A stretch of DNA of 64,000 bases from Candidatus Kuenenia stuttgartensis (lineage in GTDB: Bacteria > Planctomycetota > Planctomycetia > Pirellulales > UBA1268), in NCBI GenBank assembly GCA_945877135.1, contig CAMCQY010000004.1, positions 1,584-65,583 of the forward strand, read 5' to 3'. A model generated the notes under the pieces. The model had not been told where the DNA came from. It saw only the letters and a program-made list of their open reading frames with translations, and searched no databases. The position numbers were made by a program, and so were the translations under genes. Within the stretch, counting starts at the first letter, position 1; each line of letters starts with the position of its first letter. Positions 4,754 through 21,403 of this stretch are shown piece by piece.

Positions 4754-5797
4754 ATGTCGATGCCAATGAGGAATGGTGTTCGAGGAGTCGCCCGAGGCTT
4801 TACTCTCGTCGAACTGTTGGTGGTGATCGCCATCATCGGCACGCTCGTCGGCCTGCTGCTGCCGGCCGTGCAGGCGGCCCGCGAGGCGGCCCGCCGCATG
4901 TCATGTAACAATAAATTGCGGCAAATGGGGCAGGCAGCGTTGAGCTACGAGTCTGCGCGTAAATGCTATCCGACTGGCGGCATCGTGCCTTTCAATTTTG
5001 GCTGGTGGAAGAACGGCATGGAGCTGGCCGATGTCTTCGGAACACCGTTCCTCAATCACTTCTTTCAGATGCTGCCCTACATGGAAGAAGACACCACGTA
5101 CAAGTTGCGGTTCAAGGCGTGGAGTGGCTACATGGACCTGACCACGGCAGGCCTGAGCGCCCAGTACGTTCCCACCTATAGCTGCCCGAGCCGGCCGATT
5201 CGATTCATTGCCGCGGCGGGTAATCCGATCCCTGCGCCGACTTTTCTTCAGGACTACGCCGCTTATGTGAGCACCGAAAATCCTGGTAAGCCTGCCTCTT
5301 GGAGTGGGTACAACCAGGCAGGCTGTGACGCCAACTGGGGTGGAATCATCTCAGCCGGCGGCTTCCCGAAAACAGCTCCGAGCGACCCATACCCGATCTC
5401 CCAATTCAGCCTTGGCAAGAAAATTACGACCGCGTCAATCACCGACGGCACTACCAACACGCTCTTATTCGCAGAAAAGGGGGTCAGCACCGATCGCTAC
5501 CTGAATCCCAAAGCGGGGTCACCCTCGTCGTGGTGGGAGGAAGCAACGCCGTGGGCAGTCTCGGACAGTTGTGGTCGCGGCGGAATTCGGTATTGGTATG
5601 GCCCACCGCGGCTCGATGGCCGGTCTTCGGGTACGAACCCCGACAGTGTTTTTGGGTCCGCACACCCCGGCGGCTTCAACGCCGTGATGGGCGACGGCAG
5701 TGTACTTACGGTCTCCTACGGAGTGCAGCAGAGCGTCTTCGAAGCCATCGGCAAGCGAGCTGACGGTGCCGGCCGGGTCGCTGAATTGCAGCCGTAG
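4754..5797 (+). CDS. DUF1559 / HX9DG protein with prepilin-type N-terminal cleavage/methylation domain
   Basis: N-terminus is [34 protein letters not shown]. The C-terminal segment [15 protein letters not shown] matches H-X9-DG. This family is a Planctomycetota hallmark. Confidence 0.85.
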
Positions 5798-6943: not shown

Positions 6944-7790
6944 GGCCCGCGGTGCAGCGTGTTCTGGTGCGGGAGGTGCAGGTGGCGACGAGAGAGCCGA
7001 GCGTCGAGCCTGTCGAGTACTCGGGTTTTCCCGAACGACCAACCGTTACCGGAGCAGGCGGAATCCGCGGGCCGAGCTTCGCGTACGACTTCGAGACCTG
7101 GCGGCCAGTCGGGTGCAGTTCGGATATCCGCGGCTCTGGGTGCTCCTGCGTCGGGAAGGGTGGCTCGTGAACAAGAAACTTGTGTATCGGCTGTACTGCG
7201 AAGAAGGCCTGGGAATCCGGCGGCGAAAGCCACGTCGGCGGAAGAGCGTTCAGGTTCGCGAAGCTCGTTCGATAGCTCAGCGTGCCAATGACAGCTGGAG
7301 CATGGACTTCGTGTCCGAACAGCTGGTCGGCGGGCAGCGATTCCGGCTGCTGGAGTGAGTCGATAACCATAGCCGTGACAGCCTGGCCATCGAGGTTGGT
7401 CAGCGATTGACTGGAGACGATGTTGTGCGGGTCTTCGAGGGAGTGGCTTCACAGCGTGGCAAGCCCCAGACGATTCGAGTCGACAACGGACCAGAGTTCA
7501 TCTCGAGGAGCTTGGATCTATGGGCCTCCTTCAATGGCGTGAAGCTTGACTTCAGCAGGCCAGGAAAGCCCACAGATAATGCGTTCATCGAGTCGTTCAA
7601 TGGTCGGCTTCGCGACGAGTGCTTGAACCAGCACTGGTTCTTGTCGCTCGATGAAGCACGGGTCGTGACAGAAGCTTGGAGGGACGATTACCATTGGTCA
7701 CGTCCGCGCGGTGCTCTGGGCAACCGAACACCGTCGGAGTTCTTGCGGCCGGTAGCTGGGCATGCCCAGCTACCGGCCCTGCATGGCTAA
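6931..7790 (+). pseudogene. IS3-family transposase OrfB (DDE), inactivated
   Basis: After the -1 slip, the frame reads LRPAVQRVLVREVQ. Homology then continues in another frame from ~6987 (ERAERRACRVLGFSRTTNRY...FGYPRLWVLLRREGW), which implies an extra 1-nt indel near 6975-6990. There is an in-frame TGA at 7356-7358 ([16 protein letters not shown]). DDE-region motifs are present ([35 protein letters not shown]). Confidence 0.8.
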
Positions 7791-7825
7791 CAACTCGGCT
7801 GGTACCAAGTTGGGGGCAGCGTCAG

Positions 7826-8743
7826 ATGACGATCACAGAAGCTCTCCATTGGCCCGGGAACATGGTGCGGCGAACGTTGGCCCGATGGCGCTACCGTCGA
7901 GTGAGCACCGCGGTGCTTGAGCGGCGGCTGGCTGCGGCCGGGCTCGCATTTCCCGAGCAGACGCATCCCACCGTATCGGTGCTGATCGCCATGTACGGCC
8001 GGCCGGAGATCACCCTCGACGCGTTGGTTGCGTTGATGGCGAACGCCCGCGAGTCATCGATCGAGATCCTGCTCTGCGACGATCAAAGTCCCGACGGCAG
8101 CGGCCGGTTCTTCGAGAGCGTGCCAGGCCTGCGGCTGACGACGAATAAGGAAAACATGGGCTATCTGCGGAGCAACAACATGCTCGCAGCCGATGCCCGT
8201 GGTGAGTTCCTCCTGCTGCTCAATAGCGACGCGTTGATCCAGCCGGGGGCGATCGCCTTCCTCCTGGATGTCTTTCGCACGCAGGATGACGCTGGGCTCG
8301 TGGGGGGCCGGCTGCTCTATCCAGATGGCAGGCTTCAGGAGGCGGGGGCCGACGTGCTCCCCGACGGCCGGACCGTGCGACGCGGGTGGCGACAACGGGA
8401 ATCCCCGGTCCTGTACGACCGCATCGAGGAGGTCGACTATTGTTCCGCCGCATGCGTTCTCATTCCCCGCCGGTTGTTCCTTGACGTGGGCGGGTTCGAC
8501 GAACTCTACCTGCCCGCCTACTACGAGGATGTGGATCTCGCGTTCAAGGTGAGGGCGGCCGGGCAGCGTGTCTACTTTCAGCCTGCCGCCAGGGTGATTC
8601 ACGTCGAAAATGCGAGTTCTGACTTCGAACGAGCCAAGGCCCAGGTGGAAGTCAATCAACCAAAGTTTCGCGGCAAGTGGGCGGCGGTGCTCGACGCAGG
8701 TGACTATCCCAGTGCACAACACCATCCTCGCCGCGAAGGATGA
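7826..8743 (+). CDS. Glycosyltransferase family 2
   Basis: Has VSVLIAMYGRPE...ILLCDDQSPDGS (DxD-type) and YEDVDLAFK. The ATG at 7826 is 1 nt after the IS right end. The same frame stays open back into the IS to 7676. Confidence 0.8.
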   Translation: MTITEALHWPGNMVRRTLARWRYRRVSTAVLERRLAAAGLAFPEQTHPTVSVLIAMYGRPEITLDALVALMANARESSIEILLCDDQSPDGSGRFFESVPGLRLTTNKENMGYLRSNNMLAADARGEFLLLLNSDALIQPGAIAFLLDVFRTQDDAGLVGGRLLYPDGRLQEAGADVLPDGRTVRRGWRQRESPVLYDRIEEVDYCSAACVLIPRRLFLDVGGFDELYLPAYYEDVDLAFKVRAAGQRVYFQPAARVIHVENASSDFERAKAQVEVNQPKFRGKWAAVLDAGDYPSAQHHPRREG

Positions 8744-8779: not shown

Positions 8780-10075
8780 TCACTCAGGATCCAGGGCCCC
8801 CAGTTCCAGCAATCTCCGGCGCATCCGGTCTCCGGCCCGGCGGGCCGAAAATTCGTCCGCCATGAACGCAGCCGCCTTGCGGCCCAGTTCGCGGCCGGTC
8901 TCCGGCTGCCGCGCGAGCTGCCGCATCCATTCGGCCGCGTGGTCGAGATCAGGATCACCCCAGCGCTGCCACGCCTCGTAGGGGCCGACGTCCTTCCCCA
9001 CCGGCACGATTTTGCAGCTCACCGGGCAGGCATGCTCGGGGTGCACAAAGTCGGTGGTCGACGACCAATCGGTGGCAATGACGGGCTTGCCAATCGCCAA
9101 TGCCTCCGCCGGCCCAAGCCCAAATCCCTCGCTGCGGTGAAGTGACACGAAGCAATCGCAGGCCCGCATGAGCGCGGCGACCTGCAAGCGGTCGAGCGGC
9201 TGCTTGAGGAAACGGATGTTCGGCCAGTCGGCGGCGAGCTCTTCCAAAATGCGGACATTCTCCGGGCGGAAGTGCACGTTGTTGAGCTTGACGATGAGCG
9301 TGGCCGGGCTGTCGGGCCGAAATGCCCGCTGGAAGGCGTGGATGGCACCTTCGGGGTTTTTTCGCTCCTGGTAGCTGGCGACGTCGTACATGAAGAAAAA
9401 AACATACGCATCATCACGAATTCCCAGCTCGCTTCGTGGCATCGGCGAGCCGTCCGGCGCGGTGATGCCATGCGGCATGAGCACGACCTTGGCTGCTCCA
9501 GCGTCACGCAGCATTCGCTCGATGAAGCGGGACGGTGCCCAGAGCTCCTGCACGTCGCGGAGAAATGGCCGCCAGTCATCTGGCAGTACCGGCAGTTCCC
9601 AGTGCCAGACGCCGATGGTGATGCGGCCGCGGATGCCGCGACGACCGAGCATCTCACCCATGAACCGCATTTCGGGCGGATTCATGTGGAGGATGTTCGC
9701 GCGGTGAGCGGGGTAGGGAATCTCATGCGCTGCCGCCCTCAGGTCGCCATGGCGACAGTGGAGTGAAAACGGCATGTTCACGACGCCGAACGGCACGCCC
9801 GACTCGGCGAGCGCAGCAGCCGCGAGTCGGCACGACTCCCCGATGCCGTTCTCGGCCCGACTGCATCCAAGCAGGCTCGCGCCGGGAAGGAGACTGCCAG
9901 GACGACCGTCCGGCAACCGGCTAGCCTGCCGCCAGTACGACCACTCCGTGGCGACGTCGGTCTGCCGTAGCAGCACCCGCTTCACGGCGCGGCGCACGGC
10001 GAATCTACCGGCCCAGTGCACGAGCGGATCGAATTGTCCCTGCGGCGAGGCCGTCTTTGTGACAGTTTCAAGCAT
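8780..10075 (-). CDS. Glycosyltransferase family 4 (GT-B, group 1)
   Basis: C-terminal motif SLHRSEGFGLGPAEALAIGKPVIATDWSSTTDF (E-x7-E type). It lies downstream of the ACP gene on the same strand. Confidence 0.75.
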   Translation of the reverse strand: MLETVTKTASPQGQFDPLVHWAGRFAVRRAVKRVLLRQTDVATEWSYWRQASRLPDGRPGSLLPGASLLGCSRAENGIGESCRLAAAALAESGVPFGVVNMPFSLHCRHGDLRAAAHEIPYPAHRANILHMNPPEMRFMGEMLGRRGIRGRITIGVWHWELPVLPDDWRPFLRDVQELWAPSRFIERMLRDAGAAKVVLMPHGITAPDGSPMPRSELGIRDDAYVFFFMYDVASYQERKNPEGAIHAFQRAFRPDSPATLIVKLNNVHFRPENVRILEELAADWPNIRFLKQPLDRLQVAALMRACDCFVSLHRSEGFGLGPAEALAIGKPVIATDWSSTTDFVHPEHACPVSCKIVPVGKDVGPYEAWQRWGDPDLDHAAEWMRQLARQPETGRELGRKAAAFMADEFSARRAGDRMRRRLLELGALDPE

Positions 10076-10114: not shown

Positions 10115-10381
10115 TCAGCCGTCGATCTGTCGGCCTTCAGCCGCCAGTTTGGCTGCGATCACCTCGACGAGGTGGCCGACATCCGGAAGGCCGGAGACCT
10201 CGGCGGTTGTGAAATGGACGCGGAACGCCTTCTCAATCGACACCATGAGGCGGATGTGGTTGAGGCTGTCCCATTCCGCGACATCCTTGGCAGTCATCGC
10301 GGGCGTGGGTACGAGGCTTTCGTCGTCGAAAATCTCTCGGAAAATACCAGCCAAACGGGTGTAGATATACTCGTGGGTCAT
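10115..10381 (-). CDS. Acyl carrier protein (DltC-like stand-alone carrier)
   Basis: 88 aa with the phosphopantetheine-site motif AEWDSLNHIRL (DSL). It is divergent from the FkbH-MBOAT pair, separated by a 59-bp intergenic region. Confidence 0.8.
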   Translation of the reverse strand: MTHEYIYTRLAGIFREIFDDESLVPTPAMTAKDVAEWDSLNHIRLMVSIEKAFRVHFTTAEVSGLPDVGHLVEVIAAKLAAEGRQIDG

Positions 10382-10440
10382 AGCGAAAAGTTACCCTGCG
10401 ATGGGACGATGGTCCAGCGACGATTGAAGCGATTTCCGAC

Positions 10441-12381
10441 ATGAACCCCACGGCTTTCGACAGCCTTCCTTGGTTGCCGTCGCCGCCCCAGGACTTCCGT
10501 TATCGGTGTCAGGGCGTTGGCGGCGATGCCCGCTCGGTAGCGAGGCAGCTTCGCGTTTTGGCGGGCCACGCCCTCGGCGACAGCGAGATGCGACAACTCG
10601 CCCGCACGGCGGGCGCTCTGAAAGCCCGCAGCGACGGCGGCAGGATCGCCGGCCTGCGCTCATACACCCTCGCGATTCTCTCCAACGGCACCACGTCGCT
10701 GCTCGCTCCGGCCCTTGTCGCCACAGCGCTGCGTTACGGGATCGACCTCCAGGTGATCGAGGGGAACTTCGACCAAGTGATTCACGTGGCGACCGCGCGG
10801 GACCCGCTCCTTCAGGCATCATCCCCAGACGGCATTCTCGTTGCCTTAGACCATCGGGGCATTCCTGGCCTGGATGGCGGCCTCACGGTCGACGAGGATG
10901 CAGCCGTGGCCGAAGCGATCGGGCATCTGGCGGGCATATGCCGCGGCCTGCGGTCGCAGACACCCGCGACGCTCTACGTGCAAAACGTCGCATGCCCGCC
11001 CTATCCGATGTTCGGGAGCCTCGATCGACGCGTGTCGGGCACACAGCGACGGCGGATCGAGCGGGTGGCCATTGGGGTGAACCACCTTTTAGACGAGTTG
11101 CCTGGCGTGCTCCTCGACGTGGACGGGATCGTCCGCACAGTGGGTTCCGAACACTGGTTCGACGAGCGGCAGTGGCACGTGGCCAAGCTGCCGTTCTCAC
11201 AGGAATTCGTTCCGTTGTACGCCGACCATCTGCTGCGTCTCATCGCTGCATCGACGGGGATGGCCCGCAAGTGCCTTGTGCTCGACCTCGACAACACGCT
11301 CTGGGGCGGAGTCGTGGGGGATGACGGCATGCACGGGCTCGTCCTGGGACAGGGCGATGCCGTCGGAGAGGCATTCCTTGCGGTACAGCGGGCCGCCGGC
11401 TGGCTCCATTCCCGGGGCGTGCTGCTTGCCGTCTGCTCGAAGAACGACGACGCCGTGGCCCGTGCGGCGTTTCGCGACCATCCGGACATGCTGCTGCGGC
11501 TCGAGGACATCGCCGTGTTCCAGGCCAACTGGCACGACAAGGCCACGAACCTGCGTGCCATCGCCGCCGCGCTCTCGATCGGCACCGACGCGCTGGTCTT
11601 GCTCGACGACAATCCCACGGAGAGGGCGCTCGTTCGGTCCGAACTGCCCGAGGTCGCAGTGCCGGAACTGCGAGCCGACCCCGCGGGCTACCCGGCCGTC
11701 CTGCTCGCCGCCGGCTATTTCGAGACACTCGGCTTCACCTCGGAAGATCGCGCGCGAGTTGGGCACTACCGGGCCGACGCCCAGCGGGCGGCACTGGCTA
11801 CGTCGTGCGTCGACATGGACGCCTACCTTGAGTCGCTCGAGATGACGATCCACTTCGCGCCCTTTGACGCGGTCGGCAGGGCCCGGATCGCTCAGCTCGC
11901 GAACCGCTCCAATCAGTTCAACCTCACGACCCGCCGCCACGACGAGGCCGCCATCTCGGCCCTCGAGTCGAGGGCCGATGTGTTCACGCTCCAGATTCGA
12001 CTGGCAGACCGCTTCGGCGACAATGGCATGATTGGCGTCGTCATCTGCACCGCTGCCGGAACGGACTGGGTGATCGACACGTGGCTGATGAGCTGCCGGG
12101 TGCTCAATCGTCGGGTCGAGGAGGCGGTGCTCGACGTGCTGGCCACCAGCGGCCGCGCCCGCGGCGTCACACGCCTCGTCGGACTCTACATCCCCACCGA
12201 TCGCAACGGCATGGTGCGGGATCACTACGCGAGGCTCGGCTTCGAGCCGGCGGGCACCGAGCACGGAGCGGATCGCTGGCATCTCGGTCTCGCCGACTAT
12301 GTGCCCCGGAAGCCGCCGATGCGGGTGGTGGTCGCCAGCGGCATCCACGCCTCGGAAACGCCAGGTGAGGCCGGCAGATGA
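10441..12381 (+). CDS. FkbH-like HAD-IIIC phosphatase/acyl-loading protein with a GNAT-like C-terminal domain
   Basis: HAD motif I LVLDLDNTLWGGVVGDDG, followed by LAVCSKN and VLLDDNP. The C-terminal segment is FGDNGMIGVVIC...WLMSCRVLNRRVEE. The stop overlaps the MBOAT start (12378-12381). Confidence 0.8.
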   Translation: MNPTAFDSLPWLPSPPQDFRYRCQGVGGDARSVARQLRVLAGHALGDSEMRQLARTAGALKARSDGGRIAGLRSYTLAILSNGTTSLLAPALVATALRYGIDLQVIEGNFDQVIHVATARDPLLQASSPDGILVALDHRGIPGLDGGLTVDEDAAVAEAIGHLAGICRGLRSQTPATLYVQNVACPPYPMFGSLDRRVSGTQRRRIERVAIGVNHLLDELPGVLLDVDGIVRTVGSEHWFDERQWHVAKLPFSQEFVPLYADHLLRLIAASTGMARKCLVLDLDNTLWGGVVGDDGMHGLVLGQGDAVGEAFLAVQRAAGWLHSRGVLLAVCSKNDDAVARAAFRDHPDMLLRLEDIAVFQANWHDKATNLRAIAAALSIGTDALVLLDDNPTERALVRSELPEVAVPELRADPAGYPAVLLAAGYFETLGFTSEDRARVGHYRADAQRAALATSCVDMDAYLESLEMTIHFAPFDAVGRARIAQLANRSNQFNLTTRRHDEAAISALESRADVFTLQIRLADRFGDNGMIGVVICTAAGTDWVIDTWLMSCRVLNRRVEEAVLDVLATSGRARGVTRLVGLYIPTDRNGMVRDHYARLGFEPAGTEHGADRWHLGLADYVPRKPPMRVVVASGIHASETPGEAGR

Positions 12382-13769
12382 CGATCAACTCGCTCGGCTT
12401 CCTGGGATTCGTCGCCGCGGCGGCCGCTGCCTTTCACCTTGCGCCCGGCCGATGGCGGGCCCGCGGAGTCTATCCGCTGACGACGCTCGCCTTCCTCGGG
12501 CTGACCGGCCCGTCATGGGCGGCCCTGCTTGCGGTGCTTGGTTTCATCGTCGTGCTCTGGCTCGCGACCCGCATCGTGGCACGCCAACCCGGCCGGGGCA
12601 CGCTGCAGCTCCTCATCGCCGCGATCCTCGTGATTTTCGGCTGGCTCAAGGGCTACACGATGCTTGCCTGGCTGCCGCTGGCAACGCAGGTCCCCGCCAC
12701 GATCGGGCTGTCGTACATGCTGATCCGCGGGCTCCAGTTGCTGGTCGACATGCGCGAAGATCCGGGCCTGCGGCCGGCGGCGATCGACGTGTTTTCGTTC
12801 CTCGCGTCGTGGCCGTGCCTCGTGTCGGGGCCGATCCAGCGATTTCAGGAGTTTCAGAAGCAGGCGGAAGGCATGCACTCGTTTCGGCTCGACGACGAGG
12901 TGCTCGTGGAGTCGCTCGGCCGCATGGCGCGGGGCTGGCTGCTCGTGCTCGTCTGCGGCGACTTCTTCCGCCATTTCTGGCAGGGACTGAAGGTGCTCGC
13001 CTGCGAGGACGTCTATCCGCTGGCCTTCGGCGGCGCGCAACTCGCCTTCCTGGCCTATCTCTTCTGCGACTTCGCCGGCTACACCGACATCGTCATCGGG
13101 GCGGGACGGCTCTGCGGCCTGCGGCTTCCGGAGAACTTCGACCGTCCGTACGAGTCGCGAAGTTTCCTCGAGTTCTGGAACCGGTGGCACATGACGATGT
13201 CGAACTGGTTCAAGACGTATGTCTTCAGTCCGCTGCTGATGGCCCTGACGTCCCGCTGGCCATCTCCCGCCGCTGCGAACGGCTTTGCGGCCATCGCCTT
13301 CTTCGTCACGTTTTTCCTGGTCGGCCTCTGGCACGGCACGACGAAGACATACATTCTCGCCGGACTGCTCGTTGGTCTTGGCGCCAGCGTAAACCAGTGG
13401 TACCGCGGGGTCGCACGCAGTCGGCTGGGCAAGCGTGCGTTCGATGCGCTGCCGCAGCACGTCGCCTACGGCATGGTGGCCAAGGGGCTGACGTTCGCCT
13501 ATCTTTGTGGAGCAATCGTGCCGCTATGGCTGCAGGGATCGGAGATTCGTTCGATCGCCGGCCGCTACGGTCTCGTGGGGCTGGCGATCTCGCAGGCCTT
13601 CGTCTTCGCGGTGGCAGCCCCGACGGCGGCCGTGTGGCTTCCCCGCATCGGGTGGCCGCGGTCGATGGCTCTGCGGTGCTTGCTGATCGCGGCTGCGATC
13701 GTGATGATCGAGCTGTACCTCTTTCTTTTTCCGCCGACCGCCGGCCGGTTCTTCTACCAACAGTATTGA
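12378..13769 (+). CDS. MBOAT family O-acyltransferase (DltB/AlgI-like)
   Basis: Polytopic membrane protein with the conserved-His region FWNRWHMTMSNWFKTYVFSPL. Confidence 0.85.
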   Translation: MTINSLGFLGFVAAAAAAFHLAPGRWRARGVYPLTTLAFLGLTGPSWAALLAVLGFIVVLWLATRIVARQPGRGTLQLLIAAILVIFGWLKGYTMLAWLPLATQVPATIGLSYMLIRGLQLLVDMREDPGLRPAAIDVFSFLASWPCLVSGPIQRFQEFQKQAEGMHSFRLDDEVLVESLGRMARGWLLVLVCGDFFRHFWQGLKVLACEDVYPLAFGGAQLAFLAYLFCDFAGYTDIVIGAGRLCGLRLPENFDRPYESRSFLEFWNRWHMTMSNWFKTYVFSPLLMALTSRWPSPAAANGFAAIAFFVTFFLVGLWHGTTKTYILAGLLVGLGASVNQWYRGVARSRLGKRAFDALPQHVAYGMVAKGLTFAYLCGAIVPLWLQGSEIRSIAGRYGLVGLAISQAFVFAVAAPTAAVWLPRIGWPRSMALRCLLIAAAIVMIELYLFLFPPTAGRFFYQQY

Positions 13770-13863
13770 TCACACCGCTTCTTCTCGCCGCTGGGATCGA
13801 GGCCGCGCGGCACAACCGGGCCGTTTCAGCACAAGGATTCGAGTCCCAGGATCTGCACTCATC

Positions 13864-14787
13864 TCAAGAAAGGTCGCGTCGTTCCACGATGAGGCCCATC
13901 GACCGGGGAATGAACCGGGCTTTGGGAAGAATACGACGGGGGCTCACCGACATGGTTTCCAGCACCCGCAACCCATACTTCTCGCACATGGCCACAAGTT
14001 CCGACTCGCGACGGAACTCGAAGATGTGATCCACCTGTGCTGCGGTCAGGGCACCCGTAAGGTAGGCGCGTGTCCCGGGCTTCAGCAGGTGAGCGATCAC
14101 CTCTACCAGTCGCTCGGGCTGTTCGAGGTGCTCGATGAGAAACGAGCAGATCACCGCGTCGGCTGACCCGTGGGCCATACCACCGAGATCCAACGCATCC
14201 TGCAGGGTGTAGGTGGCTCGGTCCGAGACCCCTGCCGCCCCGGCCACGAGGTTGGCGATGGCCATAGACGAAGGGCTGATGTCGAAGCCGTTCAGCCGTG
14301 CGTCCGGACGATTGCTCAGGGCCCACACTCCCCAGCCGCCGTGCCCCGGCGCGATCTCGATCATCTCCGGCGTCGAGGGCAGGCGTGCCAAGAACCGATC
14401 CCTGAAGAACAGGGACAACTCCATGTGGTGCGACCACAGAAAGTTGGTGAGGAACACACCCCACAGGTAGTCGTCCATCACCTCCCGCTGGGAGTAGACC
14501 GCGGCATTGCATTCATCGTAGCTGGAATTCTGGTAGTGCCCGGCGTCTTCATACCGTGCCTGGCACAGGATCACATCTGTCGAGAATCGTGCGAAGGCAT
14601 CGACGCAACGAGGTGCCCACCCTTCGTCTCCATGGATCCTGGCGGCCCACCCAAGAAACTGCTCGGCCATCGCATGCCACGCGGCGGGATTGACCTCCCG
14701 AGCCTCCTCAATCCCACGCAGGGACCGCGGATGATGGCTCCGAACGTATGAAAACAAGTCGTCGGCGTAGGACATGTTCGCTTCCAC
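13864..14787 (-). CDS. Class I SAM-dependent methyltransferase
   Basis: Motif I-like segment MIEIAPGHGGWGVWAL and an acidic loop NGFDISP. It is convergent with the MBOAT gene. Confidence 0.65.
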   Translation of the reverse strand: MEANMSYADDLFSYVRSHHPRSLRGIEEAREVNPAAWHAMAEQFLGWAARIHGDEGWAPRCVDAFARFSTDVILCQARYEDAGHYQNSSYDECNAAVYSQREVMDDYLWGVFLTNFLWSHHMELSLFFRDRFLARLPSTPEMIEIAPGHGGWGVWALSNRPDARLNGFDISPSSMAIANLVAGAAGVSDRATYTLQDALDLGGMAHGSADAVICSFLIEHLEQPERLVEVIAHLLKPGTRAYLTGALTAAQVDHIFEFRRESELVAMCEKYGLRVLETMSVSPRRILPKARFIPRSMGLIVERRDLS

Positions 14788-15059
14788 CAGCGGTCGACGA
14801 GATCCCGCACGAGAACCGCTTGGGCCAGGCCAGCCGTATCACCGGAGCGTAACCTGCGGCCGTGGTGCATTTCTATCGCCATCGGGGGGGGTGATACGCA
14901 CCGAGTGCCGAGGGAGTAGTCGCTGGCGACCGCGTGCCCCGCGATAGTCTGGCGGTACTTCCGGATTCGCGGCGCCGTCGTGATAATTTCCATCCGAGCA
15001 ACTCCCTATTTCCGTCTGTCTTCGACCGGTGCCTTCGCGAGCAGGATCGATCGGTATCG

Positions 15060-16205
15060 ATGAAACCCCTTCTCCTCATCGCCGGGTTCTATGCTGCGAT
15101 CAATGCCGTGGTCTTAGGGGCCATCGTTCTCTCAATAGGCTTCCCTATTGCCGGCCCCGTCGTTGCGCACCGCCCGGGGGGACTGCGCCAGACGAACGAA
15201 GAAATAGCGCTCGCGGCGTTGCTCGAGACGTCACAACTGGCCCGAGCCCATCAGCCTCAACTCATCGTACTTGGTGCTTCGGTCGCGGCTGGTGCCTATC
15301 CGCCGGCCTTGGTGCAGTCAAAGCTGCCTGGCTTCATGGCCAACAACCTCGCGATACCGGGAGCGACGATTACCGAGATCCTGCAAGTATTCGACGAGGT
15401 GCGTTGGGCCGCACCTACAGAGACCCTGCGGAAGTCCTTGCTCGTGCTGGGGGTGAGTTACACGTCGTTCTGCCCGGACATCGTCCGGTACTCCAGTATC
15501 GCGGGCTCTCGGCCTGTATGGCGGACGACACCTCAACCCATGACCTATGTCCGCAAGGCCGCTGACCGAAGCCCGCCGATTCTCGGCATCGAGCATCCCC
15601 TGCGTGCGGTGATTCCACGTTCGCTGGTGCTGGCCGCCAAGCAGCGGTTCCGCGTCTGGGGAAGGCTTTGGGAGTTCCTGCCCTTCCACCCCGGGGAATG
15701 GCTTTCACAGCGCGGGCGATGGCGGTTCCAGACGCTGGCCATGCGACGCGAACGGGAGCGGCACGAAGCCGTATTCCCCAAGCCGAAACCGATCCTGGAA
15801 TGGTTCCTCGGCTTGTCCGTCAAGGAGCAGACAAAGTGGCTCATCGACGAATGGGGAAAAACCGGCACTCTCCTCGACCAACGTCAGTTCGACGCGCTAT
15901 CACGGCTTCTCGATCGGGCTGTTTCAGCGGACATGACCGTCGTGTTCGTGGATCTCCCGCTTCACGGGGAACACCGCCTGCATACGCCAGTACTCGCGGA
16001 GTTCCAGGAACGTCTCGGCAAGGTGATCGCGGCCCATGCCGGTAGTGGGCGAGTGCACCTGCTCAACCTGACCACGGCGCTCCCTGATGAGGCATTCGGC
16101 GATCTCGCCCATGCCAATCCGAACTACGTCGAATCATGGGTCGATCTGCTGGTCGACCGTTTGCGGCCGCTGCTGCCGGATCAATCCACGGAGGACCGGG
16201 AATGA
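15060..16205 (+). CDS. Membrane-anchored SGNH/DltD-like esterase or acyltransferase (hypothetical)
   Basis: N-terminal TM segment (LLLIAGFYAAINAVVLGAIVL). Block I-like LIVLGASVAAG (Ser), block II-like NLAIPGATI, and block V-like FGDLAHANP (DxxH). I chose the ATG at 15060 within ORF 14934..16205. Confidence 0.5.
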   Translation: MKPLLLIAGFYAAINAVVLGAIVLSIGFPIAGPVVAHRPGGLRQTNEEIALAALLETSQLARAHQPQLIVLGASVAAGAYPPALVQSKLPGFMANNLAIPGATITEILQVFDEVRWAAPTETLRKSLLVLGVSYTSFCPDIVRYSSIAGSRPVWRTTPQPMTYVRKAADRSPPILGIEHPLRAVIPRSLVLAAKQRFRVWGRLWEFLPFHPGEWLSQRGRWRFQTLAMRRERERHEAVFPKPKPILEWFLGLSVKEQTKWLIDEWGKTGTLLDQRQFDALSRLLDRAVSADMTVVFVDLPLHGEHRLHTPVLAEFQERLGKVIAAHAGSGRVHLLNLTTALPDEAFGDLAHANPNYVESWVDLLVDRLRPLLPDQSTEDRE

Positions 16206-17476
16206 GCCTCCGCCGCCCGGGCCGCAGCGTCCGACGGTGACTCGATTCTTCTGGAAAACATGTCCCTTGTCGCGGTGTCCATGAACCTGCGCTCGAAGCA
16301 GAGATGGAAGACGTAGGCCAAGGTCAGGCTCAGCAGCGTGCCGACGATCATCATGGCTGCCCAGTGCAGCAAACGATGTGGCCAGAGGAATTGCGTCGCC
16401 CTTGCCATGAACACCAGTACGATGCCGTGCGTGAGGTAGAGGCTGTAGGAAAACAGGCCGAGCCCCTGAAGCCAACGTGACTCGAGCAGCCTGCGAATAC
16501 GTGACGCCGTGCCTCCGATCCGTTCGCCGCGTTCGCAGTCCTGGGTCAGCCAGACGATGAACGCCGCCGCCGCCACCGCCGCCAGCATGTCATAGATCCA
16601 CCGCACTCGCAGTGAAGTGACATAGTACGGCACCGGAATTCGCCCCCTCAGCGTATCGAGCGGCACGCTGGCATCCAGCAGCGCGATGCCCGTCACCATC
16701 ATCAGCCCCGTAGTCAGCGCGATCGTGCCCCATGGCCATCGTCGCATGACACGTGCCTGCGGACTCTGCCCATACGCAATGCTTGCACCAGTGGCGCCGA
16801 TGCCGAATATCGGGATCATCCATGGGAGGAAGTAGACGCACCACCCGCGGGCATAGCCCTCCGTGAGCGCGGCAGCCAGGGCGGTGCAGATGGCCAGTGT
16901 CACCCACACTCCAAACCGCCGCCAGATCGGCACGAGTGCGAATGCAAAGAGAAGGTAGATCTGCCACTCGCAGGCTATGGACCAGAGGATTGCATCCATG
17001 CCGCTGACCCAATCCACGCTCGTGTTTTGCACGAGGAGGAGGTGTGCCACGACGCTGGGCCAGCGGAAGCCGTTTGTCATCTGTTCCTGCACGTGCGTCC
17101 CAGGAGAACGGCCGAGTAAGGAAAAGAGCCAGGACATGCCCACAAAAAACAGCATGTCGAGCAGGTAGGCCGCGTAGTATGCGGGCAGAATCCGCAGCGA
17201 CCGGCGCCACATGAACCCGCTGATTCCGCCTCGCAGCGTGAGCCCATTCGTCACCACGGGCATGGAAAGAAGGAAGCCCGAGAGCACCAGGAACACGGGC
17301 ACCGCGAGGTAGCCGTGCAGGAGCGGCACGTTCAGCGTTCGGATGATCGGCCCCGCCGACTCGGGGCCTGTGTTGAGCGTGAGGTGAAACAGCACGATGG
17401 CGAGCGCGGCGAGGCCCCGCACGCCGTGCAGGAACTCCAGGCGTGGCCTGCCGGTGCGGAGTCCTTCAGAGGTCAT
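16181..17476 (-). CDS. Acyltransferase family 3 (OafA/YrhL-like O-acetyltransferase)
   Basis: Begins RLEFLHGVRGLAALAIVLFHL, followed by ~10 TM segments. The start at 17476 overlaps the upstream FkbM stop by 11 nt. The 3' end overlaps the convergent SGNH gene by 25 nt. Confidence 0.8.
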   Translation of the reverse strand: MTSEGLRTGRPRLEFLHGVRGLAALAIVLFHLTLNTGPESAGPIIRTLNVPLLHGYLAVPVFLVLSGFLLSMPVVTNGLTLRGGISGFMWRRSLRILPAYYAAYLLDMLFFVGMSWLFSLLGRSPGTHVQEQMTNGFRWPSVVAHLLLVQNTSVDWVSGMDAILWSIACEWQIYLLFAFALVPIWRRFGVWVTLAICTALAAALTEGYARGWCVYFLPWMIPIFGIGATGASIAYGQSPQARVMRRWPWGTIALTTGLMMVTGIALLDASVPLDTLRGRIPVPYYVTSLRVRWIYDMLAAVAAAAFIVWLTQDCERGERIGGTASRIRRLLESRWLQGLGLFSYSLYLTHGIVLVFMARATQFLWPHRLLHWAAMMIVGTLLSLTLAYVFHLCFERRFMDTATRDMFSRRIESPSDAAARAAEAHSRSSVD

Positions 17477-18308
17477 CGCGATACCCCGCGCTGGAGAATA
17501 TCGAAAACAGCCTCCGCAGCGGCCGCGTCCAACGCCATGAGCGGCTCGATCGGATCTGGGCGATGATGGCATCCCTGCCGCCGACCGCCGCGGCAACGAA
17601 CGGGCTCGACTCATCGATCTCGCATCCCCCCGCGAGGTCGTGGATGTTGACCGGTGTCGAGAGCGCCGCCTGGAGCTCTGGCCGCTCCTCGGCCACGTAG
17701 AATCGGTTCAAGCCGTCGAAAAGCGTGAAGCGGTAGCCCGCATCGAGCAGGAGCGGCTCCCAGGCATCGTGGGCCGGCTCCGTGGAACCGGGCCGCGTGG
17801 CCTCGATCAGCACGATCCAAGGACGCAGCGTTCGCGGATTCCAGCCGCGCAGCACCTTCTCCTCCATCCCCTCGACGTCGATCTTCATCCAGTGCACGTC
17901 CTGGCCGGCAAGTGAGGCACAGGCCTGCCCGAGCGTCGTCGTCTTCACGTCCCGCTCCTCGGCGACCTGCCCGGACTGCCTGTAGCCATCGGCGTACTCG
18001 ACTGCCCCAGTGCTCAGGCCGGATGCACTGGTCACGACAAAACGGAGGGTGCCCTCCGTGTCGGAGAGGGCGACCTCGTGCACGATCTCGTCGGGCCGGT
18101 CCTCCCTGATCCGTGTCGCGAACGCGGGATTGGGCTCGAAGTGCACGCCCCGCCAGCCCTGCTCATAGAAGCCCCTGCTCACCGACTCGCACCGCGGATC
18201 ATGTGCGCCGACGTCGATGTAGCAGCCTTGACGCACGTGCCCAAGGGTTCGCCAGAGGAGAATGTCCTCGAGGTTCTGGGCGTATGACCGGAATGTGATC
18301 GGCGACAC
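17466..18308 (-). CDS. FkbM family methyltransferase
   Basis: Has YIDVGAHD (SAM motif) and WMKIDVEGMEEKVLRG, typical of the FkbM family (sugar O-methyltransferases). Confidence 0.8.
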   Translation of the reverse strand: MSPITFRSYAQNLEDILLWRTLGHVRQGCYIDVGAHDPRCESVSRGFYEQGWRGVHFEPNPAFATRIREDRPDEIVHEVALSDTEGTLRFVVTSASGLSTGAVEYADGYRQSGQVAEERDVKTTTLGQACASLAGQDVHWMKIDVEGMEEKVLRGWNPRTLRPWIVLIEATRPGSTEPAHDAWEPLLLDAGYRFTLFDGLNRFYVAEERPELQAALSTPVNIHDLAGGCEIDESSPFVAAAVGGRDAIIAQIRSSRSWRWTRPLRRLFSIFSSAGYRDDL

Positions 18309-18332
18309 GAACAGACCCCGTGGATTGCGGCT

Positions 18333-20135
18333 TCAAATGATGCAAAGGAGATCGGTGTGAAACAACCGCTCGTCGGCGGTCGATGCGAGTACGGCAGCGT
18401 ACAACTCCTCGACCTGGGCCACTTCCAGCGGCTGCCGTCGCTGCCACTCAGGACGTCTCAGATCGTATATTGCCCGGCAGCGTCGCAGAAAACCAAACAC
18501 TCGCTCTCGGCCGCCGCACCGCTCGATGCCGTAGGGCCAGAACTCAATGACCACGAACGGCCGGCGCTCCCTGGCGAAGATCCCGTTGGCCCCGTCGAGC
18601 ACGTGCCCTTCGTGCCCCTGCGTGTCGATCCATATGAGGGCCGTGTCGTCGAATGTCGTACCGCAATCGGCCTCCAGAAGGTCGAGGGTAGTCGCCGTGA
18701 TGTCCCGCGTCTCGCGACCCGCTTCACCATAGGCGTCGGCGGTCCGTCCAGTGGCCGACCTCATGCGATGATCCCCGAGGTTGTCTCCCGACACCTCCAT
18801 GACGGCAGGGCCCGCGGTGTCGGACACCGCAACGTTGAACAGTCGCGTCCGGTCCTGGCAATGGTTGAGTGCGACGTTGCATGTGAGGAGCCTAAAGTTG
18901 TCCTGATCCATCTCAACCCCCACGCCACTGGGGAACGTGCCGTCGCGCAAGCCGCGCAGCAGGTGGCTGCCGATGTTGGCTCCGATGTCCACGAAGAACC
19001 TCGGGATGAAGCCGTGGCTCTTTCTCAGGAATCGCACGACGTCGACGACGAGCCCTTCCTCGAAGGAGCCTCGTTCTCGGAGCATGCGGCCGATCACGGC
19101 GTCGTGCTCGAACACGAGCATCGGCCCGTTGTCGGTGTCGGCCAACGCGACACGTCGATCACCCAACGCGGTGCCCACCCCGCCGAAGAGCGACTCCCGA
19201 GCCACGTTGCGGCTGATCGCGGGAATCTCTATCCCCGCGTCTACGGATTGAAAACTCGCCACGATGAGCCCGTCGCCGCTGAACGACTCCTCGACCGCGT
19301 GCTCGCAGAAGATCGTCGCGCCCAGGAGGGAGAGCTGCCGCAGGCAGTCCTGGTGCGTCGTGGGTGAACCGCTGATCGAGGCATGGTGCGTCGACACGAC
19401 GACAAACCGCAGCAGACCTTCCCCAACGGCTTGGCCGAGTGATTCGAGAAACGGCAACTCGGCCCCCTGGCAGTCGATATGCAGCATCTCGATCGGTCTC
19501 CTGCCCACGACGTCGAGCAGGCTGTCCATGGAGTGGCACGGCACGCACACCGTCACCCCGTCGGACTCTCGCCGCAGGGGCGTCGCCTCGGCATGGTCGC
19601 GTCCCACGCAGGCGTTCACCCAGGTGGCAGTCCTCCCGTTGATCGCGAGGTTCCGCTGCCCGCAAGCCATGTTGTCGGGGGCCGGCTCGACGCAGACGGC
19701 GGTCGAACCCGCGACGGCACCGAGGTACCAGTTCGTGTAGTAAGCCCAGAACGCACCCACTTCCACGATCGTCGTCCCCGGGCGGCAATGGCAGAGCAGG
19801 TGGTGAAAGACATACTCCTCCTGCGGTTCGTGGTGCCCTTTCAGGTCGCGGATGATCTCCGTCATCCAGTCACCGCAGTAGCCTCCGGCCACGACGAGTG
19901 TGCCGTCGTGCATGATCTGCAGCTTCATGCCATCACGCTTGATCACTTCTCCAGCCCGCGGCACCTTCGGCACCAAGTCCGTGTCGCGACACCGCACCGT
20001 CATCGCCACCCGACGGGCCGCCTCGGGGTCGACGACGCCCCGGCTTCCGGCGCGGCCGCGCGCCGCTGACGCTCGAAAGAGGTCGGCCCACCGTGTCAGC
20101 CGATCCACGAAGGTCATCTTTGGTCTCCAGACCAT
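18333..20135 (-). CDS. Tandem double FkbM-family methyltransferase
   Basis: Two FkbM-like halves are present. The first has IVEVGAFWAY...LHIDCQGAELPFLES and the second has FVDIGANIGSH...IWIDTQGHEGHVLDGA. Confidence 0.7.
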   Translation of the reverse strand: MVWRPKMTFVDRLTRWADLFRASAARGRAGSRGVVDPEAARRVAMTVRCRDTDLVPKVPRAGEVIKRDGMKLQIMHDGTLVVAGGYCGDWMTEIIRDLKGHHEPQEEYVFHHLLCHCRPGTTIVEVGAFWAYYTNWYLGAVAGSTAVCVEPAPDNMACGQRNLAINGRTATWVNACVGRDHAEATPLRRESDGVTVCVPCHSMDSLLDVVGRRPIEMLHIDCQGAELPFLESLGQAVGEGLLRFVVVSTHHASISGSPTTHQDCLRQLSLLGATIFCEHAVEESFSGDGLIVASFQSVDAGIEIPAISRNVARESLFGGVGTALGDRRVALADTDNGPMLVFEHDAVIGRMLRERGSFEEGLVVDVVRFLRKSHGFIPRFFVDIGANIGSHLLRGLRDGTFPSGVGVEMDQDNFRLLTCNVALNHCQDRTRLFNVAVSDTAGPAVMEVSGDNLGDHRMRSATGRTADAYGEAGRETRDITATTLDLLEADCGTTFDDTALIWIDTQGHEGHVLDGANGIFARERRPFVVIEFWPYGIERCGGRERVFGFLRRCRAIYDLRRPEWQRRQPLEVAQVEELYAAVLASTADERLFHTDLLCII

Positions 20136-21403
20136 GCCCCTGGCTGGGGCGAGTGCGCGGCACCCGCCGACGGCACCACGCTTGATGGGCGACGCTGCCC
20201 GGCAGCCGCGGCGAACGCATCGAGGTATTCGCGATACGCGTCGTGAGCAAAGTGCCGGCGAGCATATTCCTTGCCGCGTCGGCCCATGGCGTCGCGGGCC
20301 ACAGGATCGCCGAGGAGCGTCACGACGGCAGCAGCGATCGCGGCGGCACTGGGCTGCACGAGCAGCCCGCCGCCAGCCTCACCGATCGTCTCTTCGAGCG
20401 CCGGCTGTTCGATGGCCACCACAGGCTTTCCGTGGGCCCAAGCCTCGAAATAGACGAAGCCAAATGACTCGCCATCCGACGGCACGCACAGCAGGTCGCA
20501 GGCGGCCAGTGCATCGTGTTTCTCGGCCTCACTCGCGTCGTCGATATCGAGGACTTGATCTCCTCGGGGTATATGACACTTGCCGTCGGATGGTCCCATG
20601 AATACGACCGTCGCGTCCGAGACTCGGCGGCGAACGGCGGGCCAGGCATCCACCAGCCTCCGTACGCCCTTGGCCTCCGTCTTCCGGCCAAGAAAGAGCA
20701 CGAGCGGGCCGCGGATGCCATGCTTCACCCGGAACGCGGCCGCATCGCCGCCGTCGCGGAAGTTGCAACGGCAATGGATGCGATGAACTCGATCAGCAGC
20801 GACGCCCATCCGGCGGATGACCGCGGCCTCGCACTCGGAGTAGGCCAGCACGGCATCGGCCATACGGTAGAGCGCGGCGTCGATCCATCGGTCGCCCCAG
20901 CGGCCGATGTGAATTGCCGGCTCGATGGAAAATGTCGCCCCCGTCTCCCGCGCGGCAGTCTCGGCGGCGAAGCCAAGCATGTCGAGGCCCGTGCCGAGGT
21001 AGTGCACGGCATCGGCGCCCCGGCACTGCGCGGCGACCGCGGCACCCACCCCTCGCGCCTGGAGGCAACGGGCGAGCGGAAGCGTGGCAGGCGACTGCAT
21101 CGCCGCGTAGATTGCCGCACCCCCCAAGCCCGCGAACGGTAGCGGCGGCAAGATGCTCACGGGAATGCCGTCGCACTCGAAGTGTCGCTGCGTCTCTCGA
21201 CGCAGGAATCGACCGTGGAGTCCCGGACGGCTGGCGGCGAATCGCCCCACGATGCTCACATCATGACCATCGACACGAAGCTGCTGCGCCAGCCACAGGC
21301 AGATGTTTTCCAGGCCACCAACAAGCGGCGGCGTGAACGGTGAAACGAGGACGACTTTCACGGACTCAAGCCCAAAACGGTGCACCCGCCGGTTCCAGGA
21401 CAC
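20114..21403 (-). CDS. Glycosyltransferase family 4
   Basis: N-terminal segment VVLVSPFTPPLVGGLE and C-terminal segment CVPSDGESFGFVYFEAWAHGKPVVA. It is the first gene of a four-gene minus-strand operon and overlaps the next gene by 22 nt. Confidence 0.8.
   Translation of the reverse strand: MSWNRRVHRFGLESVKVVLVSPFTPPLVGGLENICLWLAQQLRVDGHDVSIVGRFAASRPGLHGRFLRRETQRHFECDGIPVSILPPLPFAGLGGAAIYAAMQSPATLPLARCLQARGVGAAVAAQCRGADAVHYLGTGLDMLGFAAETAARETGATFSIEPAIHIGRWGDRWIDAALYRMADAVLAYSECEAAVIRRMGVAADRVHRIHCRCNFRDGGDAAAFRVKHGIRGPLVLFLGRKTEAKGVRRLVDAWPAVRRRVSDATVVFMGPSDGKCHIPRGDQVLDIDDASEAEKHDALAACDLLCVPSDGESFGFVYFEAWAHGKPVVAIEQPALEETIGEAGGGLLVQPSAAAIAAAVVTLLGDPVARDAMGRRGKEYARRHFAHDAYREYLDAFAAAAGQRRPSSVVPSAGAAHSPQPGAWSGDQR

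Follow-up and report, generated by a model that had tools for sequence, protein, structure and literature searches.

Within a 64,000-nucleotide stretch of DNA from Candidatus Kuenenia stuttgartensis (GenBank assembly GCA_945877135.1, contig CAMCQY010000004.1), hereafter the window, positions 10115-16205 hold a gene module that probably encodes a transmembrane polymer acylation system of the MBOAT/SGNH type (membrane-bound O-acyltransferase with an SGNH-fold transferase). As judged from its protein sequences, this system would be fed by an acyl group on an acyl carrier protein (ACP), charged without ATP by an FkbH-type enzyme. Its donor would then be neither acyl-CoA nor the D-alanyl-DltC that an adenylating ligase produces. 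Bacteria acylate envelope polymers outside the cytoplasm mainly by MBOAT/SGNH systems, and envelope acylation controls resistance to antimicrobials, recognition by the immune system, the properties of biofilms and the rheology of industrial gums. In the current picture, two types of donor serve these systems, D-alanyl-DltC and carrier-free acetyl-CoA (PMC12148441). A donor supplied by an FkbH-type enzyme is supported here by the overlap of the loader and MBOAT genes, by the linkage of all four module genes in other genomes, by variants of the module with DltB- and DltX-type components, and by the setting of the module in a glycan cluster.

The four parts named in an initial annotation of the sequence are all found where it had placed them: an ACP of 88 residues (10115-10381, minus strand), an FkbH-like protein of 646 residues (10441-12381, plus strand), an MBOAT of 463 residues (12378-13769, plus strand) and a membrane-anchored SGNH-fold protein of 381 residues (15060-16205, plus strand). 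The phosphopantetheine site of the ACP is Ser39 in the motif EWDSL (codon 10265-10267), in agreement with the stand-alone carrier and DSL serine described at first. Pfam PP-binding does not match this protein and the NCBIfam ACP models match it weakly (26 bits), while PDB entry 2LML, a putative ACP, is matched with an E-value of 5e-15. The carrier is a generic ACP and not an orthologue of DltC. Its gene is divergent from the FkbH-like gene and co-directional with a GT4 glycosyltransferase gene (8780-10075, minus strand). In 70 of 80 other genomes, an ACP homologue with the motif [EG]WDS[LMI] adjoins the gene of the FkbH-like protein.

The identity of the putative loader is well defined. TIGR01686 (FkbH) matches it over positions 2-320 of the 323 in the model and scores 283 bits (cut-off 146.65), TIGR01681 (HAD-IIIC) and PF21211 (FkbH_N) match as well, and the motif DLDNTLWGG is present, as the initial assignment to FkbH-like HAD-IIIC proteins had it. 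The protein consists of an FkbH_N region (approximately residues 1-270), a HAD-IIIC phosphatase domain (residues 275-410) and a GNAT-fold domain (residues ~460-620). The catalytic Asp and Cys residues to which the initial annotation had drawn attention are both in place: D282, D284, T286, S333, K367, D389 and D390 of the HAD domain, and Cys552 in the LMSCRV motif of the GNAT domain (codon 12094-12096), are invariant in an alignment of 27 homologues with 50-79% identity (A3). Over residues 1-434, the protein matches the crystallized BF1531 of B. fragilis (PDB 3SLR, E-value 2e-54), on which the AlphaFold model of the protein (pLDDT 85.9) superposes with a TM-score of 0.86 on the target. The C-terminal domain of the model matches many GNAT acetyltransferases in Foldseek, and the GNAT-like domain suspected earlier is thereby borne out. 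The GNAT fold is a pantetheine-binding fold.

A tblastn search of plasmids located, on pBMB400 of B. thuringiensis, the FkbH homologue that belongs to the zwittermicin cluster. We identify it as ZmaN because it is placed between exporter and nonribosomal peptide synthetase genes. ZmaN aligns to residues 277-609 of the FkbH-like protein with 26% identity, and conserves DxDxT (DLDCT in ZmaN), SKN (S333) and LMSCRV (Cys552). Both ZmaN and OzmB have glyceryl-loading activity onto an ACP. The conserved cysteine of LMSCRV, Cys552 in the window protein, we take from the OzmB literature to be the acyl-enzyme site. In tetronate and methoxymalonyl pathways, FkbH-type enzymes produce glyceryl-S-ACP from 1,3-bisphosphoglycerate (PMC7489565). 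By analogy, the FkbH-like protein of the window would load its ACP from the same metabolite. Carrier-protein loading as a function of the family is also supported by a metagenomic homologue of 1031 residues (P0060), in which the first ~630 residues are 54% identical to the FkbH-like protein and are followed by PP-binding and thioesterase domains.

The start codon of the MBOAT gene overlaps the stop codon of the FkbH-like gene (ATGA at 12378-12381), an arrangement of translational coupling. PF03062 matches the MBOAT with 67 bits. Its sole NCBIfam match is the DltB equivalog model TIGR04091, with 177 bits and below the cut-off of 375, and among PDB structures it matches DltB (8jem and 6bug, E-value 1e-32). 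The catalytic histidine, His319 in GLWHG (13332-13334), is conserved; both this residue and the coupling to the FkbH-like gene had been recognized in the initial annotation. At the C-terminus, the protein is ~60 residues longer than DltB, with ~144 residues after the histidine, and it ends in GRFFYQQY, a feature absent from the initial annotation. The last six residues, F458-F-Y460-Q-Q-Y463 (13749-13766, with the Tyr460 codon at 13755-13757), fit the "acyl shuttle" hexapeptide FxYxxF described by Anderson, Schultz, Walker, Clarke et al. (JBC 2025, PMC12148441), with Tyr rather than Phe in the last position. According to that study, the tyrosine of the shuttle carries the acyl group from the MBOAT histidine to the serine of the SGNH partner, as shown experimentally for the motif in DltX and PatA. 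In the Dlt system, the motif ends the micropeptide DltX, and in PatA-, AlgI- and WssH-type MBOATs it is fused to the C-terminus on two extra helices; MBOAT/SGNH pathways other than Dlt are said to lack a carrier protein, as they use acyl-CoA (PMC12148441). No separate DltX-like micro-ORF (open reading frame) with the motif is present in the 9-17 kb region of the window. The combination of a fused shuttle with a dedicated carrier and loader therefore fits neither of the described categories. Accordingly, the initial comparison with DltB holds for the family and structure matches and fails for a plain DltB analogue, since the shuttle is fused as in PatA and AlgI.

The start of the fourth protein is ATG 15060 and not the upstream GTG 14934, as indicated by the starts of its homologues. 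Pfam yields a sub-threshold GDSL_2 match (20 bits) and no DltD match (PF04914) at E≤1, and a sequence search of the PDB returned nothing meaningful. Given that sequence methods are nearly blind to this protein, its fold was predicted instead. The AlphaFold model (pLDDT 80.7) displays an N-terminal transmembrane helix (residues 2-26), an alpha/beta core and a helical insertion (residues ~140-265). DltD structures are its best Foldseek matches in the PDB (6pfx, 3bma, 6o93 and 7dxm, E-values 4e-5 to 1e-3, TM-scores 0.36-0.39), with DltD of E. faecium, S. pneumoniae and E. faecalis in front (4e-5 to 1e-4). They are followed by PAF acetylhydrolase, Bacteroides GDSL acylhydrolases, TesA and PatB (TM-scores 0.53-0.69 on the target, the small SGNH hydrolases reaching 0.6-0.69). 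The candidate catalytic triad is formed by Ser74 (15279-15281), Asp348 and His351 (16110-16112), accompanied by N96. G72, S74 and H351 show no variation across 62 diverse homologues, in which N96 and D348 are nearly invariant. A word search identified 25 close homologues, one of them in a record named "Planctomycetes bacterium", and 389 family members (E≤1e-3) came from a sensitive profile search against 1.8 billion representatives. The model thus supports an SGNH fold with a DltD-like architecture. The SGNH fold and the DltD architecture proposed at first are both supported, with SGNH hydrolases among the matches and DltD at the top, but membership of the Pfam DltD family is not.

The initial annotation had pointed to the lack of an adenylating DltA. 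Indeed, Pfam and NCBIfam find no AMP-binding (DltA-like) ligase in the 6-22.7 kb region, where 20 ORFs were scanned, and each gene of the cluster at 7.6-21.4 kb is assigned to some family other than this one.

The FkbH-like family is very large, with more than 7,900 proteins at E≤1e-10, and includes homologues with ~50% identity from Bradyrhizobium, Magnetospirillum, Myxococcales and Baltobacteraceae. A 62-member alignment of the SGNH-like protein (A2) proved too divergent as a seed for scanning genomes, and the FkbH-like alignment was used in its place. Scanning one genome per species yielded at least 594 relatives, and we analyzed 80 loci from Acidobacteriaceae, Bradyrhizobium, Acetobacteraceae, Sphingomonadaceae, Caulobacterales, Burkholderiales, Gemmatimonadota, Elusimicrobia and others; many of the loci with FkbH-like and MBOAT genes are from Sphingomonadaceae. 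In the 51 species-representative loci flanked by 5 kb or more on each side, the ORFs were searched with the window proteins and hidden Markov models (HMMs). An ACP lies near the FkbH-like gene in 48 of these well-flanked loci and an MBOAT within 5 kb in 41, and a recognizable SGNH-like neighbor is present in 33. All four genes occur together in 32 of 51 loci, from Acidobacteriota, Alpha-, Beta- and Gammaproteobacteria and further phyla, which answers the question of co-occurrence raised by the initial annotation. That annotation knew of no description of the chemistry for Planctomycetota; the module is widespread and not special to this phylum.

The proteins next to the MBOAT that could act as transferases, of 340-450 residues and anchored at the N-terminus, form several divergent families. 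An acidobacterial type (A4) and a sphingomonad type (A5) are related to the SGNH-like family of the window with hhalign probabilities of 92% and 96%, respectively, and one A4 member lies above the Pfam cut-off for GDSL_2. In some loci, the SGNH partner is of the AlgX type.

The shuttle motif ends 53 of 58 linked MBOATs, in forms such as IVYKAF, FVYRAF, FIYFNF and FLYWQF. Three of the five exceptions, the MBOATs of 400-404 residues in loci L005, L008 and L052, have a separate micro-ORF of 38-73 residues that ends in the motif (IFAYQNF, MVYKAF and IIAYQQF) and contains a hydrophobic helix. These peptides comprise one of 40 residues (KLAIFAYQNF at its end) between the MBOAT and SGNH-like genes of Bradyrhizobium, a two-helix peptide of 73 residues ending in MVYKAF directly after the MBOAT of an acidobacterial locus, and one of 38 residues ending in IIAYQQF in a Rhodospirillales locus. 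The micro-ORFs, all of them uncalled, are located at 4170-4292 in L003, 6149-6271 in L005, 14599-14820 in L008 and 11837-11953 in L052. Their motif and helix identify them as putative DltX-like acyl-shuttle peptides, linked to FkbH-like genes in Gram-negative bacteria. Neither a fused motif nor a separate micro-ORF was found for the MBOATs of L004 and L045; the L004 protein looks frameshifted, and an alternative ORF ends in FFYQQY.

With its separate DltX-like peptide, the Bradyrhizobium operon reproduces DltB, DltX, DltD and DltC, and an FkbH-like protein with KASIII, MaoC and SDR enzymes takes the place of DltA. Its 371-residue protein, aligned as a single sequence to the profile of the SGNH-like family, reaches an hhalign probability of 1%, and with the A2 HMM, the alignment of which includes this protein, an E-value of 1e-26. 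In Bradyrhizobium sp. B124 (L003 5422-7993), KASIII-like, MaoC and SDR genes accompany those for the FkbH-like protein and ACP. A similar set of genes makes up the "glycerate utilisation" cassette in tetronate biosynthesis, but the one in Bradyrhizobium is attached to an MBOAT/SGNH pair. On pSymB of Sinorhizobium meliloti, the order is MBOAT (ending in PPFLYQGF), a 409-residue transmembrane protein, ACP and FkbH-like protein (L084 5841-10875, CP140921.1), adjoining AI-2 (lsr/ait) transporter genes. The 409-residue protein has GGS and DPGH blocks and an hhalign probability of 34%, its assignment to SGNH being by motifs only, and its annotation as a "TonB-dependent receptor" looks like a mis-annotation. 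Long MBOAT or ACP "fusions" of 600-830 residues in the ORF calls proved to be artefacts of upstream extension and contain no extra domain.

The best species-representative match, with 66% identity, is in a metagenome-assembled genome labelled Cyanobium sp. (L004, JBIKKX010000004.1). Its gene order is of the planctomycete type (ACP on the minus strand, FkbH-like, MaoC on the minus strand, methyltransferase, MBOAT, SGNH-like) in a genome binned as a cyanobacterium, for which mis-binning or lateral transfer are possible explanations.

A further gene inside the module was overlooked in the initial annotation. It encodes a class I S-adenosylmethionine (SAM)-dependent methyltransferase of 307 residues (13864-14787, minus strand, or with an ATG start at 14775), matched by Pfam Methyltransf_11, 12, 23 and 25. 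Homologues with 25-33% identity are found beside FkbH-like genes in 18 other loci, and the gene is also present in the close relatives L086, L088 and L089. This conserved position makes the enzyme a candidate acyl-editing accessory of the module, and the transferred group may therefore be a methylated or otherwise edited glyceryl. Among the well-flanked loci, a methyltransferase and a MaoC dehydratase are each found in 12 of 51 and an SDR reductase in 8. In polyketide loading modules, FkbH together with a dehydratase and a ketoreductase leads to lactyl-ACP (bryostatin, FR901464). By analogy, loci with MaoC and SDR would be expected to give lactyl-ACP. For the window, a lactyl or chain-extended product was considered and rejected, since homologues of the dehydratase (MaoC), reductase (SDR) and ketosynthase (KASIII) are absent from its whole 64 kb.

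Close relatives show which parts of the module vary. In L086, a metagenomic relative, the flanks are 90-93% identical to the window in DNA, and the order is FkbH-like, MBOAT, SGNH-like, MaoC (minus strand), methyltransferase (plus strand), AT3, FkbM, FkbM and GT4. The AT3-FkbM-FkbM-GT4 block of the window (16181-21403) is kept there with 93% nucleotide identity. In contrast, window positions 13770-16210 differ from L086 11222-13740: in the window, a methyltransferase gene on the minus strand precedes the SGNH-like gene and MaoC is absent, and the SGNH-like genes are just 66% identical in DNA. Between MBOAT and AT3, the genes for acyl editing and transfer thus look as if they had been exchanged as a cassette. 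The ACP gene of L086 (7571-7832) matches in two pieces in different frames, an apparent frameshift that reflects either an assembly error or a pseudogene, and because of which the FkbH-like gene is called with a 62-residue N-terminal extension. In L088 (7312-9747) and L089 (7500-12445), two or three tandem SGNH-like paralogues follow just one MBOAT, and a single donor system may thus serve several acceptor sites. In L087, the module is found in an ABC-transporter-type glycan cluster with dTDP-sugar genes. From these differences among relatives, the loader and MBOAT emerge as a conserved core, with variable editing enzymes and SGNH transferases, as expected if the variable part sets the identity of the acyl group and the acceptor site.

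Several observations weigh against the proposed acyl-ACP-fed system. The fused-shuttle architecture has so far been tied to acetyl-CoA donors, the ACP gene is on the strand opposite to the FkbH-like and MBOAT genes, and in 10 of the 51 well-flanked loci no MBOAT is near the FkbH-like gene, so that FkbH-like protein and ACP can serve other acceptors. The same three points favor the main rival explanation, an ordinary acetyl-CoA-dependent O-acetyltransferase pair (similar to PatA/PatB or AlgI/AlgJ) formed by MBOAT and SGNH-like protein, with ACP and FkbH-like protein acting elsewhere, in a separate cytoplasmic step such as the acylation of a nucleotide sugar or lipid. We consider this explanation improbable. 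The MBOAT gene accompanies the FkbH-like gene across several phyla, often overlapping or adjacent, and no other enzyme that would accept the acyl-ACP is conserved in the loci. Some members of the family combine an MBOAT of 400 residues of the DltB type with a DltX-like peptide, which is the architecture of the carrier-dependent Dlt system. Moreover, the window already contains a separate AT3 O-acyltransferase for acetylation. Two more points weigh against the acyl-ACP-fed system: the 381-residue protein resembles DltD with low TM-scores and outside the Pfam family, and the module is known here from its genes, with its products deduced from them.

The remaining difficulties with this system concern its acyl group. 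ZmaN, the sole reference aligned, is distant from the FkbH-like protein and lacks its ~270-residue N-terminal domain, and the substrate could therefore differ. The MaoC dehydratase of L086, absent from the window, shows that the acyl group is not uniform among near relatives, and the methyltransferase could modify sugars instead of the acyl group. It is therefore conceivable, if rather unlikely, that the machinery works as proposed with an acyl group other than glycerate, either from another phospho-acyl donor or because the glyceryl is always converted before transfer, whether to lactyl (through dehydratase and reductase) or to a methylated product such as a methyl ether. The low identity to ZmaN and the extra domain speak for such a group, as do the lactyl-ACP of polyketide systems, the methyltransferase inside the window module and the variable set of accessory enzymes, with KASIII added in Bradyrhizobium. 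Conversely, the invariant HAD motifs and cysteine argue for a doubly activated phospho-acyl-phosphate, of which 1,3-bisphosphoglycerate is the obvious cellular example, and the window holds none of the dehydratase, reductase and ketosynthase homologues.

The acyl-ACP-fed module is part of a compact glycan-decoration cluster at ~7.6-21.4 kb, defined by ORF listing, translation and Pfam and NCBIfam scans. Upstream, a GT2 glycosyltransferase (7676-8743, plus strand) precedes the GT4 gene next to the ACP. Downstream, on the minus strand, an AT3 O-acyltransferase (16181-17614) is followed by two FkbM-family methyltransferases (17466-18308 and 18333-20135) and a second GT4 glycosyltransferase (20114-21403). 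The embedding among glycan-decoration genes noted in the initial annotation is thus confirmed. This setting bears on the acceptor. An acceptor other than the polysaccharide of the cluster, such as peptidoglycan, a lipid-linked polymer (an analogue of lipoteichoic acid) or a protein, is in our view very unlikely. Precedents for it exist in the glycerol-phosphate polymer acylated by Dlt and the peptidoglycan acylated by PatAB (PMC12148441), and the loci of S. meliloti and some others are not obviously within a glycosyltransferase cluster. The neighborhood is also heterogeneous: in a Pfam census of 118 random neighbor ORFs, the commonest families were sugar epimerases/dehydratases, GT1, GT2, Wzy_C, CpsB, AlgX, GDSL and AT3, and an AMP-binding family was not among the top 25. 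Against such an acceptor, glycan genes flank the module on both sides in the window and in four relatives (L086-L089), with glycosyltransferases, sugar-nucleotide enzymes, methyltransferases, AT3 and an ABC polysaccharide exporter, and the copy number of the SGNH-like gene (one to three) varies along with the glycan cluster.

Outside the cluster, a DUF1559 (SBP_bac_10) protein with a prepilin-type N-terminal methylation motif is encoded at 4754-5797; this family is hugely expanded in Planctomycetota, in keeping with a planctomycete origin of the window. A very long ORF of 2016 residues (23054-29104, plus strand) lies just downstream of the cluster.

The module shares with Dlt D-alanylation a dedicated carrier protein, an MBOAT with a conserved histidine that is best matched by DltB models and structures, a tyrosine shuttle of the FxYxxF type and an N-terminally anchored SGNH-fold transferase with DltD as best structural match. 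Relatives of the Bradyrhizobium type share even the separate DltX-like micropeptide. In contrast to Dlt, the window has no DltA-type ligase and instead an FkbH-type HAD/GNAT loader, which presumably uses an acyl phosphate without ATP. Its shuttle is fused to the MBOAT and not carried by a separate DltX, the MBOAT falls short of the DltB cut-off, and the SGNH protein is not recognized as Pfam DltD. The system is found in a planctomycete, a host of Gram-negative type, and within a glycan cluster, and its predicted acyl group is not an amino acid. With PatA/PatB, AlgI/AlgJ/AlgX, WssH/WssI and PatA1/PatB1, the module has in common the extra C-terminal MBOAT helices ending in the shuttle hexapeptide, a separate membrane-anchored SGNH partner and an extracytoplasmic polymer as target. 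Those systems use acetyl-CoA and no carrier (PMC12148441), whereas the window MBOAT is linked to an ACP and a loader.

The loader itself resembles FkbH, OzmB, ZmaN and the Tmn16/Mad7-type enzymes of tetronate biosynthesis in its HAD-IIIC DxDxT motif, its LMSCRV cysteine and the adjacent stand-alone ACP. In polyketide and nonribosomal peptide pathways, the acyl-ACP is passed to a polyketide synthase, a FabH-like enzyme or dehydrogenases, whereas here a membrane acyltransferase pair is found. The window protein differs further in its BF1531-type (3SLR) N-domain of ~270 residues, absent from ZmaN, and the oxidation enzymes of the methoxymalonyl pathway are absent from the window.

A chemical precedent for the proposed product exists in sphingans, bacterial extracellular polysaccharides that carry a glyceryl ester: gellan and welan bear L-glycerate esters (credited to Kuo et al. 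1986). No genetic link between sphingans and the module was found in our search, which did not include the genome of the gellan producer. Sphingomonad loci of the module also carry a methyltransferase. A paper on sanxan lists an MBOAT among the acyltransferases and makes no mention of an FkbH-like gene or ACP. We found no description of an MBOAT/SGNH system fed by an FkbH-like protein and ACP in the literature, although an earlier mention is possible; FkbH and MBOAT are mentioned together only in natural-product papers on the cyanobacterial compounds aeruginosin and suomilide. The parts and the transmembrane chemistry are known. What is new is the way in which the donor is supplied, the fact that this is combined with a fused shuttle, and the product, probably a hydroxyacyl ester.

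The observed domain content, catalytic residues, folds, shuttle motif and cross-phylum gene linkage make the following sequence of events the most likely one. By homology to ZmaN, OzmB and FkbH, the HAD domain of the FkbH-like protein would remove the 3-phosphate of 1,3-bisphosphoglycerate, with the glyceryl group held on Cys552, from where it would move to the phosphopantetheine arm at Ser39 of the ACP. At this stage, the SAM-dependent methyltransferase may methylate the ACP-bound glyceryl, as its conserved synteny suggests. In analogy with Dlt and PatA, the MBOAT would bind the acyl-ACP at the cytoplasmic face, and His319 would transfer the acyl group to Tyr460 of the FFYQQY shuttle on the outer face. 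The SGNH-fold protein would take up the acyl group on Ser74 and then esterify a hydroxyl of the polysaccharide made by the cluster. In this scheme, we infer the identity of the acyl group, its hand-off from ACP to MBOAT and the acceptor.

The window is one ordinary member of a widespread family, and the interest lies in the class, as the initial annotation correctly recognized. We tentatively propose, as a possibility with nearly even prospects, that this class is a third, widespread and undescribed one, in which an FkbH-type enzyme diverts the glycolytic intermediate 1,3-bisphosphoglycerate, without ATP, to a dedicated ACP and edited hydroxyacyl esters are placed onto extracytoplasmic glycans; in which optional methyltransferase, dehydratase, reductase and ketosynthase partners edit the ACP-bound unit; and in which an MBOAT with a fused or separate shuttle, together with one to three SGNH transferases, installs glyceryl, lactyl and related esters. 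The module, together with several hundred related ones in bacteria from soil, from water and from plants, indicates a further type of donor, an ACP charged by an FkbH-type enzyme, with an acyl group that locus-specific accessory enzymes probably diversify. The occurrence of both shuttle formats, fused and DltX-like, in the same module bridges the two known classes. Copies on S. meliloti pSymB and in Bradyrhizobium make the hypothesis genetically testable. If it is true, carrier-protein-dependent MBOAT chemistry would reach beyond the D-alanylation of teichoic acids, and the module would explain genetically how exopolysaccharides acquire non-acetyl hydroxyacyl esters, among them the L-glycerate found on gellan-type sphingans, making it a candidate explanation for glycerate and similar exopolysaccharide esters.

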